A stretch of 5,078 nt of DNA from a virus (taxonomy: Duplodnaviria; Heunggongvirae; Uroviricota; Caudoviricetes), in IMG/VR virus record IMGVR_UViG_2671180275_000003; one strand, given 5' to 3'. The notes beneath the pieces were generated by a model. The model was not told the DNA's origin. It saw only the letters and a list, made by a program, of their open reading frames with translations, and ran no database searches. The first letter of the stretch is position 1; each line of letters begins with the position of its first letter. This document shows, in pieces, positions 1 to 4,478 of this stretch. The translations under genes and the position numbers were made by a program.

Positions 1-246
1 CATTGCGTACTCAGCCCGTGCGCCAGCGGACTCTTCCCATCCATCCAGTAAGTAAATGGCATCGGCACACATGAGCATCGGAATACAAATGCTTATGTAC
101 TGCTGCTGGCTTAATCCGTCAGGCAACGTGGCAGGGTTCAGCACAACGTGCCCGTCTTCCGCGAGCCTCATCGCCTCTATGAAAAACGCCGTTCTGTTGT
201 GATCTTTGTATCCGGTCATTGGACCGGCGATATAAATCACTGCCAT
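1..246 (-). CDS. DUF4406-like (nucleoside 2-deoxyribosyltransferase-like) phage protein, partial; C-terminus lies beyond the window start
   Basis: Own translation of the - strand from ATG at 246..244 gives MAVIYIAGPMTGYKDHNRTAFFIEAMRLAEDGHVVLNPATLPDGLSQQQYISICIPMLMCADAIYLLDGWEESAGARAEYAM with no stop before position 1. The IAGPMTG and CDAIYLLDGWEESAGA motifs are as recalled for DUF4406. Strong SD (GGGAGGT) 5-6 nt upstream. The ORF track listed only a shorter unrelated + frame here. Confidence 0.6.
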   Translation of the reverse strand, partial: MAVIYIAGPMTGYKDHNRTAFFIEAMRLAEDGHVVLNPATLPDGLSQQQYISICIPMLMCADAIYLLDGWEESAGARAEYAM

Positions 247-455
247 GCTTTACCTCCCGTATTGCGTGTTGCTGTCAGCACGCGTACTTCTTCCATGTTC
301 GTGGCGCAGAAGTGCGAACCGTTGATAAGGCGGATGTGATGCATCTCAGAATTGCGTGAGTCCTGGCGTGTCATGCCCTGGTCAATCAGGCTTTCGTCGA
401 CTTCGTACTGATGGCCGTGGGTTGTGAATCTGATAACGGTTGACTCCTTGATCAT
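237..455 (-). CDS. Hypothetical small phage protein (72 aa)
   Basis: ATG start with SD AAGGAG 8 nt upstream; start overlaps the stop of the upstream gene in an ATGA arrangement (452..455); its 3' end overlaps the DUF4406-like start by 10 nt. No recognisable motif. Confidence 0.5.
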   Translation of the reverse strand: MIKESTVIRFTTHGHQYEVDESLIDQGMTRQDSRNSEMHHIRLINGSHFCATNMEEVRVLTATRNTGGKAWQ

Positions 456-688
456 TGCTTGACTCCTTGCCCGGCAGATTTACCGTGGAGTAGCTTTTTA
501 AGGGCGGCGATTTCTCTTTCCTGATCCTGAATCACCCGGATTGCTTCCATGGTGATCCCCAGTGAGATCGAGGAAGATATAACGACCTTTGGTTTTCCAA
601 CGGCAGCTGCAACTTTGGCTGTTTCCTCGTGAGCACGGGCGATGTGACGTAACCCCCGCAAAAGTGCTTTGTTTCTTTCGCTATTCAT
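452..688 (-). CDS. Hypothetical small phage protein (78 aa), predicted helical/coiled-coil C-terminus
   Basis: ATG start preceded by AGGAG; ATGA stop/start overlap with the next gene downstream; same strand and tight packing as neighbours. No recognisable motif. Confidence 0.55.
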   Translation of the reverse strand: MNSERNKALLRGLRHIARAHEETAKVAAAVGKPKVVISSSISLGITMEAIRVIQDQEREIAALKKLLHGKSAGQGVKQ

Positions 689-723
689 TTCCTGACTCCT
701 GTGTTACTGATTCATCTGTTTAT

Positions 724-1704
724 TCACGTACTGGCAGGGGTAAACATCACGCAGTAAGTTGCATCTCCCGTTACCGGTCCGCAGTCCGGGCAGTAGCCAC
801 CGCCATGGCGACCGCAGGCGTCGCACTGTTTCAGGGTGGCGATAACCTCCGGTGCTGGTTCGCGGGTTCTTGCGCCAACGCTTCGTGGTGCCTGTATGCA
901 GTTCATCCGGTAACCCTGATAAATACGTCTGGTTTCCGGTGTGTCGGAATTGGAGATGGTGATTCTGGTCATGCCGCCCGTTTCCTGCGAAAGGCGGTCA
1001 AGTGCTGCCCTCAGGCGAACGTGCTCGTGTTCATCGAATGGTTTTCCGTAGGCGGTGAAATTGCCCTCGCCACTGAACCGCAGGTAAGGGGGATCGCAGT
1101 ACACGCAAAGCGTGTTGCCCATGCCGAACAGGTGACTGGCAGAGCTCAGCGTATCCTTAAAATCTGCGTGGATAAGCAGCGTTTGGGTGCTGTTTGCCTT
1201 GTCTGCAAATGCGCGGATTTCCCGCTCAGGGAAGTAGGGTTTTCGGTAGCCGCCGAAAGGCACGTTAAAATCACCTTTTCCGTTCACCCGGTACAGGCCA
1301 TTAAAACAGTGCCGGTTGAGGTACAAAAACATGGCGGCCAGTCGCAGTTCACGGCGGTCGCTTATTCCCGTTCTGCTACTCAGGAAGGCATGATTCTCTG
1401 CGTTAAAGGTTTCGCGAATGATGAGATAGTCACCCCTGTTGTTGTGGTTCAGGAACAGGGTTTTCGCCTCGTCGATCAGACTGTCGGTGTTGTCCCGTGC
1501 TGCCCGCCAGAAATTAATCAGCGCACCATTGGAATCACCCAGGATGTAACGCTTGTAACTGGTGTTCATGAATACCGATGCGCCACCCACGAACGGTTCA
1601 ACCAGGCAGTCAGCTTCTGGCAGATGCGCCTTCAGTGTGTTCATGATGCGGCTTTTGCCACCCACCCATTTCAGCGGTGTGCCGGATAACAGTTCTTTGC
1701 TCAT
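724..1704 (-). CDS. dam: Dam-family N6-adenine DNA methyltransferase (probably GATC-specific) with a ~55-aa Cys-rich C-terminal extension
   Basis: 326-aa product with LKWVGGK and CLVEPFVGGASVF (AdoMet-binding region), LFLYLNRHCFNGLYRVN...FNVPFGGYRKPYFPE, catalytic DPPY (VYCDPPY) and NFTAY, all close to E. coli Dam. SD AGAGG 8 nt upstream; ATGA overlap with the upstream ORF. C-terminal tail has CDAC...CPDC plus two further Cys. Confidence 0.9.
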   Translation of the reverse strand: MSKELLSGTPLKWVGGKSRIMNTLKAHLPEADCLVEPFVGGASVFMNTSYKRYILGDSNGALINFWRAARDNTDSLIDEAKTLFLNHNNRGDYLIIRETFNAENHAFLSSRTGISDRRELRLAAMFLYLNRHCFNGLYRVNGKGDFNVPFGGYRKPYFPEREIRAFADKANSTQTLLIHADFKDTLSSASHLFGMGNTLCVYCDPPYLRFSGEGNFTAYGKPFDEHEHVRLRAALDRLSQETGGMTRITISNSDTPETRRIYQGYRMNCIQAPRSVGARTREPAPEVIATLKQCDACGRHGGGYCPDCGPVTGDATYCVMFTPAST

Positions 1705-1928
1705 AACGCGGCCTCTTTGTTATAGGTTTCGTGCGTTAATAAATCCCATGACTTCCCGTTGTTTTTGCTCAGTAATCGCCAGCGAAAACCGATTCTTATT
1801 ACCAGGTAGTCGTGGGGTTTTATACGTGAAAAATTCCGCACGCCGTCGCGGAATAAACGCAGCGATGCGCGGGCTTTTCTTTCCACGTTCAGGGGGAGGC
1901 AGCAACACACATTCAGGATGGCGGCCAT
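1701..1928 (-). CDS. Hypothetical small protein (75 aa)
   Basis: ATG at 1928 with SD GAGGTG 6 nt upstream (the SD overlaps the exonuclease stop); stop overlaps the dam start as ATGA (1701..1704). Low-complexity sequence with no known motif; a competing 62-aa frame (1720..1908) exists, so confidence is moderate. Confidence 0.4.
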   Translation of the reverse strand: MAAILNVCCCLPLNVERKARASLRLFRDGVRNFSRIKPHDYLVIRIGFRWRLLSKNNGKSWDLLTHETYNKEAAL

Positions 1929-1937
1929 GGCTTCACC

Positions 1938-2519
1938 TCATATGTTCAGGAATGGTGTTGTGAAGCGCTGCCAGATTTCTGACACGACCTTTGCCTGGTA
2001 AACGGCGTCGCCCAGCGCGGTGTGAGCAATGGTCTCTTTGCCTGATCGGCCTGGCATTCTCCAGCCGGTTGATTCAGCCATGGCGATAAGCGGACGCATA
2101 CAGCGCTCGTCCCAGTAGCACCAGGGGATGCTTTTTTCTCCGGCTGTGCGTGTTATGGCGGATTTCAGGATTGGGAAATCGAAGGATGCGCCTTTGCACC
2201 ATATGGTCAGTGAATTGCCCGGGCTTTCGTCATGCATATTGCGTGAAATGAACGCCAGAAATTCGGTCACTGCTGCCAGCTCTGTTCCATCTGCGTTGCG
2301 CAGGCAGGCTCTGGCTTCCACGGATTGTCCGGCCCACCATACAGCGGTGGCTGCATTGACGGTTCCGCCGTTGCGTTCTGAATCCACCGGGTCGATGAAT
2401 TTCTCAAACTGCTTGCCCAGCTTTCCGGTGAACGGGTCGAAAAACACCGCCCCGATCGCGAATATGGCTGCGTCCGGTCCGTTACCCAGTGTTTCGGTGT
2501 CAATCATGAGATGGTTCAT
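1938..2519 (-). CDS. DnaQ-like DEDDh 3'-5' exonuclease (the type annotated as exonuclease/exodeoxyribonuclease in enterobacterial prophages)
   Basis: Exo I motif MIDTETLG, central FDFP acidic motif, Exo III motif HTALGDAVYQA (H-x4-D). The track start at 2528 is GTG; I prefer ATG at 2519..2517 (193 aa), which overlaps the upstream stop as TAATG and has AAGGGG about 8 nt upstream. Confidence 0.8.
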   Translation of the reverse strand: MNHLMIDTETLGNGPDAAIFAIGAVFFDPFTGKLGKQFEKFIDPVDSERNGGTVNAATAVWWAGQSVEARACLRNADGTELAAVTEFLAFISRNMHDESPGNSLTIWCKGASFDFPILKSAITRTAGEKSIPWCYWDERCMRPLIAMAESTGWRMPGRSGKETIAHTALGDAVYQAKVVSEIWQRFTTPFLNI

Positions 2520-2749
2520 TATGCGCACCCCTTCAGTTCGTCTGGGTTGGCGAGTATTGCAATCAGTCGTTCAATGGCTGCGCAGGTTTCCTGTGGACAG
2601 GTGTGTGTCTCTTTCGCTGTCTCAGTCAGCTCGCGCAGTAATTCGCAGATATGCGCACGCTCGGCTTTTCTTGCGGCCATGCTGATATGTGCATGATGGT
2701 TAGCTGGTCTGGCGGTTATTTTTCTGCCGGGTGATTCGGCTGTTCTCAT
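2519..2749 (-). CDS. Hypothetical small protein (76 aa from ATG; track version uses a TTG 8 codons upstream)
   Basis: Track ORF 2519..2773 begins at TTG; the in-frame ATG at 2749..2747 has a canonical AGGAG 7 nt upstream, so I place the start there. Four Cys residues, no recognisable domain. Its stop overlaps the exonuclease ATG. Confidence 0.5.
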   Translation of the reverse strand: MRTAESPGRKITARPANHHAHISMAARKAERAHICELLRELTETAKETHTCPQETCAAIERLIAILANPDELKGCA

Positions 2750-3953: not shown

Positions 3954-4478
3954 TCACTGGTTGCCTTCGCTGTATTGGTGTTGCTCCAGTTTTGACTTTC
4001 TTCCTGTGTAAACCCGCTTTCCATTGATGGTCTGGCAGTCTTCTTTGTTTGCCGGGGAAAACTTTCTTTTCTGTCGGTCGTATGTCCAGTAGCTTTTCCA
4101 GTTGTGCCATTCTGGCGGCTCGCATTCTGGTAGTTCGTCAGCCAGCTTGTCCCACTCTCTGGCGTTAAACCACCACACGCCATCCGAATTTTCATCTTCA
4201 GGGTTTGAACGGGTCTTGTGTCCAGGCATCTGATTTCGCTGAAGCGCCACGCGCAATGCAGCTTTTGTCAACCCGATATAGGCTGCCCCTTTTTCAAGTG
4301 AGCAAAGTCCGGCTACCGGGCCATCCAGTCGCAAGGTTGCCCCTTTTTTGTAGGTGCGTTTTTTCTTTTCCTCTTGGTGTTCATCGTCGTTTGCCGCGCC
4401 AACGGATTCGGTGATGCTGTCGTTTTCCTGAAGGGCTTGTGTGTCAGATAACTCTTTATCGGCAATTGACTTCCGCAT
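3954..4478 (-). CDS. Cox/Apl-like HTH DNA-binding protein (candidate excisionase/early-promoter regulator), 174 aa as drawn
   Basis: First gene of the operon facing the repressor. Central segment GAAYIGLTKAALRVALQRNQMPG...DGVWWFNAREWDKL has the HTH-then-aromatic-wing pattern of P2 Cox / 186 Apl. ATG at 4478 with SD AGAGGA 6 nt upstream. Acidic ~48-aa N-terminal and ~55-aa C-terminal extensions are atypical; an internal TTG (4334..4332) with AAGGGG upstream is an alternative start. Confidence 0.6.
   Translation of the reverse strand: MRKSIADKELSDTQALQENDSITESVGAANDDEHQEEKKKRTYKKGATLRLDGPVAGLCSLEKGAAYIGLTKAALRVALQRNQMPGHKTRSNPEDENSDGVWWFNAREWDKLADELPECEPPEWHNWKSYWTYDRQKRKFSPANKEDCQTINGKRVYTGRKSKLEQHQYSEGNQ

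Follow-up and report, generated by a model that had tools for sequence, protein, structure and literature searches.

The window analyzed here is a stretch of 5,078 nucleotides from the viral record IMGVR_UViG_2671180275_000003 (IMG/VR; Caudoviricetes). Over its full length it is 98.1% identical to the P2-family prophage located beside dmsA in Escherichia coli STEC2018-607, and by this sequence comparison its source element is a P2-like (Peduoviridae) E. coli prophage. The subject of this study is a pair of small genes, referred to as ORF78 and ORF72, which lie between dam, the gene of a D12-class Dam methylase, and a DUF4406 gene. These genes are real, conserved, translationally coupled and mosaic, and the prophage can be carried without them. 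They are probably accessory genes of the early operon, and their products may well be small non-enzymatic binders made upon induction. A first-pass annotation had taken their position in a DNA-modification neighborhood as grounds for considering them accessory or regulatory partners; this proposal is not supported by the distribution of the genes, as described below.

The gene pair downstream of dam

ORF78 (452..688, minus strand; ATG at 688..686, TGA at 454..452) encodes a basic protein of 78 amino acids (aa) with a net charge of about +7, and ORF72 (237..455, minus strand; ATG at 455..453, TGA at 239..237) encodes a near-neutral protein of 72 aa. Both start codons are preceded, at a distance of 7 nucleotides (nt), by a strong Shine–Dalgarno (SD) sequence: AGGAG at 696..700 for ORF78, as read from the sequence, and AAGGAG at 463..468, inside the 3′ end of ORF78, for ORF72. 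The stop codon of the first gene and the start codon of the second share an ATGA at 452..455, which couples their translation. Downstream, the end of ORF72 overlaps the start of the DUF4406 gene by 10 nt (ATGGCAGTGA, 237..246). The latter gene (minus strand, 1..246, running off the window; ATG at 246..244 with GGGAGG ahead of it) is well supported by Pfam (E 9.8e-31). Upstream, a spacer of 35 nt (689..723) separates ORF78 from dam (724..1704, minus strand; stop codon at 726..724). The coordinates, the ATG starts, the AGGAG-type SD sequences, the ATGA overlap and the placement between dam and the DUF4406 gene all stand as the first-pass annotation described them.

The early lytic operon is carried on the minus strand and runs from the cox-side gene toward gpA, the replication endonuclease gene, which lies outside the window. 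In the matching prophage, the order is cox-like … exo, ParE-like, dam, ORF78, ORF72, DUF4406 … gpA. Because dam also overlaps the ParE-like ORF through an ATGA (1701..1704), the genes from the ParE-like ORF to DUF4406 form a chain with a single short gap, the dam–ORF78 spacer. No promoter-like or terminator-like site is present in this spacer. More broadly, a consensus scan for promoters and terminators on the minus strand from 1 to 1000 returned nothing, although weak promoters may escape such a scan; it gave no sigma-70-like site between 237 and 1000 on that strand, and no Rfam match was found in the 237–723 stretch. The lack of a promoter or terminator in the spacer indicates that ORF78 and ORF72 are read from the long early-operon transcript.

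Both proteins are already known, as identical or near-identical hypothetical proteins in RefSeq (WP_032330912.1 for ORF78 and WP_032330910.1 for ORF72) and as members of existing PHROG families. ORF78 belongs to phrog_23826 (E 1e-35, 122.8 bits; residues 1–78 on profile positions 1–78 of 78) and ORF72 to phrog_3459 (E 8.3e-33; residues 1–67 on profile positions 2–66 of 67), and both families are listed as being of unknown function. The reading frame is intact in 7/7 distinct alleles of ORF78 and in 12/12 of ORF72, collected from E. coli genomes and IMG/VR contigs, with median pairwise dN/dS values of 0.40 and 0.31, respectively (Nei–Gojobori). Judged from their sequences, ORF78 and ORF72 are genuine coding genes.

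Structural models agree with this assessment. AlphaFold2 predicts ORF78 to be an antiparallel two-helix hairpin (helices 3–29 and 33–74; predicted local distance difference test score, pLDDT, 90.6). The peptide EAIRVIQDQEREIAALKKLL, corresponding to residues 48–67, falls within the predicted long helix 33–74, in keeping with the helical, coiled-coil-like C-terminus that had been noticed in the sequence. In the ORF72 model (pLDDT 87.4), four strands (2–12, 15–20, 38–43, and 48–62) make up a small all-beta domain. Structure prediction followed by Foldseek, which the first-pass annotation had proposed as a check, thus yielded confident models and no significant structural match: ORF78 retrieved only generic hairpins from the PDB, all with E ≥ 0.27, and the best match of ORF72 among the BFVD viral models had an E of 0.02. 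Variants of Rop figure among the ORF78 matches, with a TM-score of about 0.65, but this is a structural analogy only, as sequence similarity is absent and the match reflects generic hairpin geometry. Likewise, the model of ORF72 bears a weak, non-significant likeness to SH3-like small beta barrels (CheW/CheA-P5, Tudor, Sso7d-type affitins, LytTR).

Searches for remote homologues were similarly uninformative with respect to function. Scans against Pfam, NCBIfam and PADLOC gave nothing above threshold for either protein; the only Pfam line was an EarA-like one for ORF72 (E 0.061), which at 13.6 bits stayed below the cut-off of 22. PDB sequence profiles returned engineered repeat proteins and coiled-coil noise for both. 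For ORF78, tblastn against 50,697 phage records gave zero matches, and when 1.84 billion representative proteins were searched exhaustively with an HMMER profile, only its own cluster and two fragments were recovered. Alleles A and B of ORF78 (defined below) also align with the first ~63–66 positions of phrog_9338, a family of unknown function (E 2e-5 and 1e-4); this match is weak, and the C-terminal half of the 138-position profile is absent from ORF78. For ORF72, a profile search that included its P88-type homologues gave 89 matches, all of them short unnamed proteins and nearly all from Escherichia and close relatives. A helix-turn-helix (HTH) domain was also sought, and neither ORF matches an HTH family; with a helical hairpin and an all-beta domain as models, a C-protein-like controller of restriction–modification, or any other HTH regulator, was rejected as a candidate. 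Both models suggest non-enzymatic proteins, with no catalytic site apparent in either. The earlier statement that the function of the pair is not evident was borne out, only PHROG families of unknown function being matched. The first-pass annotation had also named loss of the frames in related elements, or homology with known proteins, as grounds for abandoning its view; related elements do keep the frames, and neither ORF is explained by homology to a characterized protein.

The variable ORF78 slot and the conserved ORF72 family

The ORF72–ORF78 region was found in 29 of 5,426 complete E. coli genomes. The window-type ORF78 (type A) is present in 20 of these, a protein of 81 aa occupies the same slot in five (type B), a different 78-aa protein does so in two (type C), and the remaining two carry a deletion variant. 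The three types are less than 25% identical to one another: a full-length alignment of A with B gives 24% identity (hhalign E 8.5e-5), and the alignment of C with the others is only marginal. A motif in the C-terminal helix is nevertheless common to types A, B, and C (VIQDQEREIAALK, IIEEQQREIEALK, IMEQQQEQIAKVK), with the pattern I-x-[ED]-Q-[EQ]-x-E-[IQ]-x-x-[LV]-K. Their net charges, counted from the sequences, are about +7, +2, and −7, a range that argues against a conserved nucleic-acid-binding surface in the ORF78 series. The ATGA overlap with ORF72 is kept in A- and B-type alleles, while a 2-nt spacer takes its place in type C. Beside all three types, ORF72 is 84–94% identical, and dam is 87–98% identical across loci with differing ORF78 alleles.

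The segment also shows traces of exchange. In comparison with its closest relative, the STEC2018-607 prophage, the window is 99.9–100% identical from position 926 to its end, whereas a divergent patch extends over positions 101–925 (12101–12925 of locus L001), where identity falls to 86% for ORF78, 94% for ORF72 and 78% for DUF4406 codons 1–49. The patch also takes in the 3′ end of dam. This drop in identity indicates that a segment of ~0.8 kb was swapped by recombination.

Natural knock-outs of the pair exist as well. In strain SCU-106, a type B allele of ORF78 bears a premature stop at codon 45, with dam intact beside it. In the deletion variant, dam is joined at about codon 292 to codon 25 of ORF72 (equivalent to window positions ~237–830), which removes the Cys-rich tail of Dam, the whole of ORF78, and codons 1–24 of ORF72. 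The variant is located at 2504–2647 in locus L005, 4001–4144 in L023, and 182–325 in L024; besides two complete E. coli genomes, two contigs of IMG/VR (L023 and L024) carry it, which means that it is in circulation. It is from the nonsense allele of SCU-106 and the deletions of L005, L023, and L024 that the dispensability of the genes follows, and these variants could be used as ready-made controls. A scan of species-representative genomes found two related loci, and IMG/VR gave 8 and 11, all from the same prophage type.

ORF72 has a wider distribution than ORF78. In the same tblastn survey of phage records, it matched 14 records, all from P88-like (Xuanwuvirus-type) Escherichia or Citrobacter phages, with 41–48% identity, and conservation to 37–48% identity extends over phages and prophages of Escherichia, Citrobacter, and Salmonella. 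Ten aligned sequences (from E. coli prophages, Escherichia phages, and one Citrobacter phage) share 22 invariant positions, in the motifs RFT..G..YEVDE.LI and HHI.L....F.ATN. The larger clade of the family, at ~45% identity, includes P88 gp08, other Xuanwuvirus-type phages, and prophages of E. albertii, Citrobacter, and Salmonella; the early operons that harbor its members have no dam close by. At nine P88-type loci or more, the homologue of ORF72 shares 4 nt with the gene that comes next, which encodes a winged-helix protein of 81 aa (MarR_2/HTH_24) and precedes an Ead/Ea22-like gene. Even the member with the greatest divergence among those tested (37% identity) has this arrangement. The most consistent neighbor of the ORF72 family is thus a winged-helix gene, and not dam.

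The product of P88 gp08 (YP_009113051.1, 67 aa, hypothetical) is a clear homologue of ORF72, as it matches phrog_3459 with an E of 5e-43 and has the same motifs. Both genes lie in a Peduoviridae early operon, after a block of DUF4761, DUF4754, and small membrane-protein genes, and each is translationally coupled to the next gene. They differ in their surroundings: the P88-type gene has neither dam nor ORF78 nearby and is followed by the winged helix-turn-helix (wHTH) gene and the Ead/Ea22-like gene, whereas ORF72 of the window is followed by DUF4406. In comparison with P88, the exo/ParE-like/dam/ORF78 block sits between the small membrane-protein gene and ORF72. Another family, phrog_19053 (246 positions), aligns with an ORF72-like protein at positions 84–135 and with the wHTH protein at 162–243. 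Loci of this type are L002 (3131–3576), L025–L027, and L034–L038, and the profile implies that phage databases contain a true fusion of the two or, failing that, gene calls that were merged and frameshifted. A second ORF72-like gene paired with a MarR gene, downstream of gpA in the same prophage, was considered and rejected, its 69-aa product proving unrelated after translation.

Since P88-like phages carry homologues of ORF72 but neither dam nor ORF78 beside them, and three ORF78 types occur beside a conserved ORF72, the two genes assort independently. ORF72 belongs to a backbone accessory set that is shared with P88-like phages, and ORF78 is a fast-diverging gene at the end of the exo/ParE-like/dam block.

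Possible roles of ORF78 and ORF72

The interpretation that we favor, with moderate confidence, is that ORF78 and ORF72 are genuine but dispensable accessory genes whose products act as small binders. Because they lack a separate promoter, the genes should not be expressed in the lysogen; induction or infection would switch them on, from a transcript starting at the cox-side early promoter. Translation would then proceed along the chain from the ParE-like ORF to dam (ATGA), across the 35-nt gap to ORF78, on to ORF72 (ATGA), and into DUF4406 (10-nt overlap). The predicted hairpin of ORF78 has a shape typical of proteins that dimerize or dock onto a partner, and each ORF most likely encodes a protein that binds a macromolecule of the host or the phage stoichiometrically, early in the lytic cycle, which might serve host takeover, counter-defense, or fine regulation. 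Dam does not seem to have either protein as an obligatory subunit or as a regulator it depends on. Genes of this kind are familiar from phage P2, in which orf78 and orf80–83, located between cox and gene A and read from the early promoter, are short, non-essential, and poorly conserved. In the tblastn survey of 50,697 phage records, no sequence similarity linked them to ORF78 or ORF72.

Some considerations weigh against this interpretation, in which we infer when the genes are expressed, that their products work as binders, and what kind of target they have. The binder mechanism is the default conclusion from size, fold, operon position, and evolutionary behavior, and the alignments behind the two structural models were shallow, with only 14 and 22 closely related sequences. 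The dN/dS values of 0.3–0.4 denote moderate constraint only. In addition, the dam allele (at ≥80% query coverage) and the dam-linked ORF72 clade are each present in 29 of the 5,426 genomes, and the genomes listed for the two coincide, so that the sequence data may leave room for a cassette-specific link with Dam, especially for ORF78.

This last point bears on the proposal that ORF78 and ORF72 are accessory or regulatory partners of Dam, and possibly of DUF4406; ORF78, for instance, might be a coiled-coil adaptor that tunes the activity of the methylase or its choice of targets. Such a role would agree with the shared operon and the translational coupling, with the coinciding sets of genomes, with the recombination patch that takes in the 3′ end of dam, and with the fact that ORF78-type genes (A, B, and C) have been seen solely directly after dam. 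The co-occurrence of dam, ORF78, and ORF72, however, is that of a cassette moving as a block and alone does not prove a function. The closest phage homologues of dam, with ~50% identity, are carried by three other Peduoviridae, Klebsiella ST16-OXA48phi5.4, Salmonella SI7, and Enterobacter phiT5282H, none of which has ORF78 or ORF72: dam is directly followed by gpA in the Klebsiella phage and by an unrelated 59-aa ORF in the Enterobacter phage, and in SI7 the genes after it are a ParE-like ORF and another methylase gene. Conversely, most members of the ORF72 family reside in dam-less early operons, beside the wHTH gene. The co-occurrence across the range of the family that would be expected of an obligate Dam subunit is thus lacking on both sides, and it follows that Dam needs neither ORF78 nor ORF72, and that the ORF72 family can do without Dam. 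ORF78, moreover, does not behave like a specific partner, with its types less than 25% identical and charged from +7 to −7 next to a dam that is 87–98% identical, and a nonsense allele of ORF78 persists beside an intact dam. With dam-less ORF72 genes, dam homologues lacking the ORFs, and ORF78 and ORF72 alleles that are divergent, interrupted, or deleted, the position of the pair does not sustain the partnership suggested by the first-pass annotation, which we consider improbable. It is slightly less difficult, though still unlikely, to envisage ORF72 as a small co-factor of a transcriptional regulator whose partner has been lost or swapped in the window lineage, in which case ORF72, and perhaps ORF78, would take part in early-to-late or lysis–lysogeny regulation and not in host takeover. 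The 4-nt overlap with the wHTH gene in P88-type loci and the phrog_19053 profile, which spans both proteins, speak for such a link. However, it is DUF4406 and not a wHTH gene that follows ORF72 in the window lineage, tblastn finds no gp09-like wHTH in the 29 kb of the prophage that it covered, and phage Chuche and a Salmonella prophage carry a different gene after their ORF72 homologues. As for phrog_19053, it may reflect merged or frameshifted calls: the frame changes between one gene and the other, and the profile does not extend over the final 15 residues of gp08.

The size of the two genes and their ATGA junction are also typical of toxin–antitoxin (TA) systems, and the pair could be read as a TA or abortive-infection-type module, or ORF78 as the antitoxin of the ParE-like ORF, which has no obvious antitoxin nearby. 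Yet PADLOC, Pfam, and NCBIfam give no TA family match for either ORF, and the scan gave no promoter specific to the pair, whereas type II TA modules are autoregulated units. Neither the family similarity nor the separate promoter of a type II module is thus observed. The ParE-like ORF is found without ORF78 in L005 and L023, and ORF78 without the ParE-like ORF in L004, L007, and L022; as each occurs without the other, ORF78 was rejected as a required antitoxin of the ParE-like ORF. Nor is ORF78 a needed antitoxin against ORF72: the constant co-occurrence expected of such a pair is missing, as L003 has an intact ORF72 next to a nonsense ORF78, and P88-like phages have ORF72 alone. If the roles are reversed, ORF78 being the toxin and ORF72 its neutralizer, the arrangement would fit the presence of an intact ORF72 at every ORF78-bearing locus examined; on sequence grounds it would meet with no contradiction and no positive support. 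Altogether, a TA function seems very unlikely. Least probable of all, to the point of being hardly credible, is that the two ORFs are chance open frames or decaying remnants. Their distribution is indeed narrow (29/5,426 E. coli genomes), the relatives of ORF78 are confined to its own 50% cluster among the 1.84 billion representatives, and nonsense and deletion variants are known. Against this stand the strong, ideally spaced SD sequences and the ATGA coupling, the intact frames of all 7 + 12 distinct alleles with their dN/dS values, the conservation of ORF72 across phages of three host genera, the 22 invariant positions in the ten aligned sequences, and the confident folds predicted for both proteins.

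The series of rapidly diversifying helical hairpins at the post-dam position, beside a conserved ORF72, would also fit an arms-race module, such as early-expressed inhibitors of a variable host defense or nuclease, or the reversed TA arrangement with ORF72 as the conserved neutralizer. We regard this as a rather improbable explanation; an arms race could account for a hypervariable, recombining slot, but ordinary phage mosaicism explains it equally well.

What had been a speculative DNA-modification lead has become a documented pair of catalogued, uncharacterized accessory genes of P2-like prophages. A search of the accessible literature on both ORFs, their PHROG families, DUF4406, and anti-defense in Peduoviridae found nothing relevant. 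ORF78 and ORF72 are ordinary phage "dark matter," correctly described, and nothing sets them apart from many similar ORFs of temperate phages, the hypervariable ORF78 slot being their sole mildly unusual feature. Should either protein turn out to inhibit a factor of host defense or replication, the number of small phage effectors would grow by one.

Neighboring genes

The first gene of the early operon, on the cox side, lies at 3954..4478 on the minus strand and encodes 174 aa, about twice the length of P2-type Cox proteins (92–95 aa in related loci); it is labeled as a hypothetical protein in RefSeq. Between it and the exonuclease gene, on the same strand, are the DUF4761 and DUF4754 genes and small membrane ORFs. 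The exonuclease, of the Rv2179c-like 3′–5′ type, is encoded at 1938..2528 (minus strand). The right end of the window carries, on the plus strand, genes for a cI-type HTH repressor and an integrase.

The ParE-like ORF (1701..1928, minus strand; 75 aa; PF24732, E 3.7e-18) differs from its STEC2018-607 counterpart by a 1-nt indel at window position ~1892 (minus strand), in its first codons. This indel accounts for the shorter RefSeq protein at this ORF (213 nt), and the true start codon is uncertain. The ORF is absent from some otherwise similar prophages (L004 and L007). In Salmonella SI7, its homologue is located directly upstream of the second methyltransferase gene, with a 4-nt overlap (L032, 3469–3696, plus strand), which suggests that this small protein may travel with methylase genes and not belong to a classical TA system. 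The small post-dam genes of SI7 and phiT5282H had been considered as relatives of ORF78 or ORF72, and were set aside because one is this ParE-like homologue and the other is unrelated.

Dam itself ends in a Cys-rich tail (CDACGRHGGGYCPDCG; residues ~294–309, window ~778–825, minus strand) that, from its sequence, appears to resemble a small zinc ribbon. This tail is outside the D12 methyltransferase domain, as the Pfam match ends at residue 267.

Finally, just beyond the left end of the window (L001, 11398–11922, plus strand), a hypothetical gene of 174 aa is found on the opposite strand inside the early operon. Oddly placed between the DUF4406 and "derepression protein" genes, it converges on DUF4406 with a 27-nt overlap and may be a cargo gene expressed in the lysogen.

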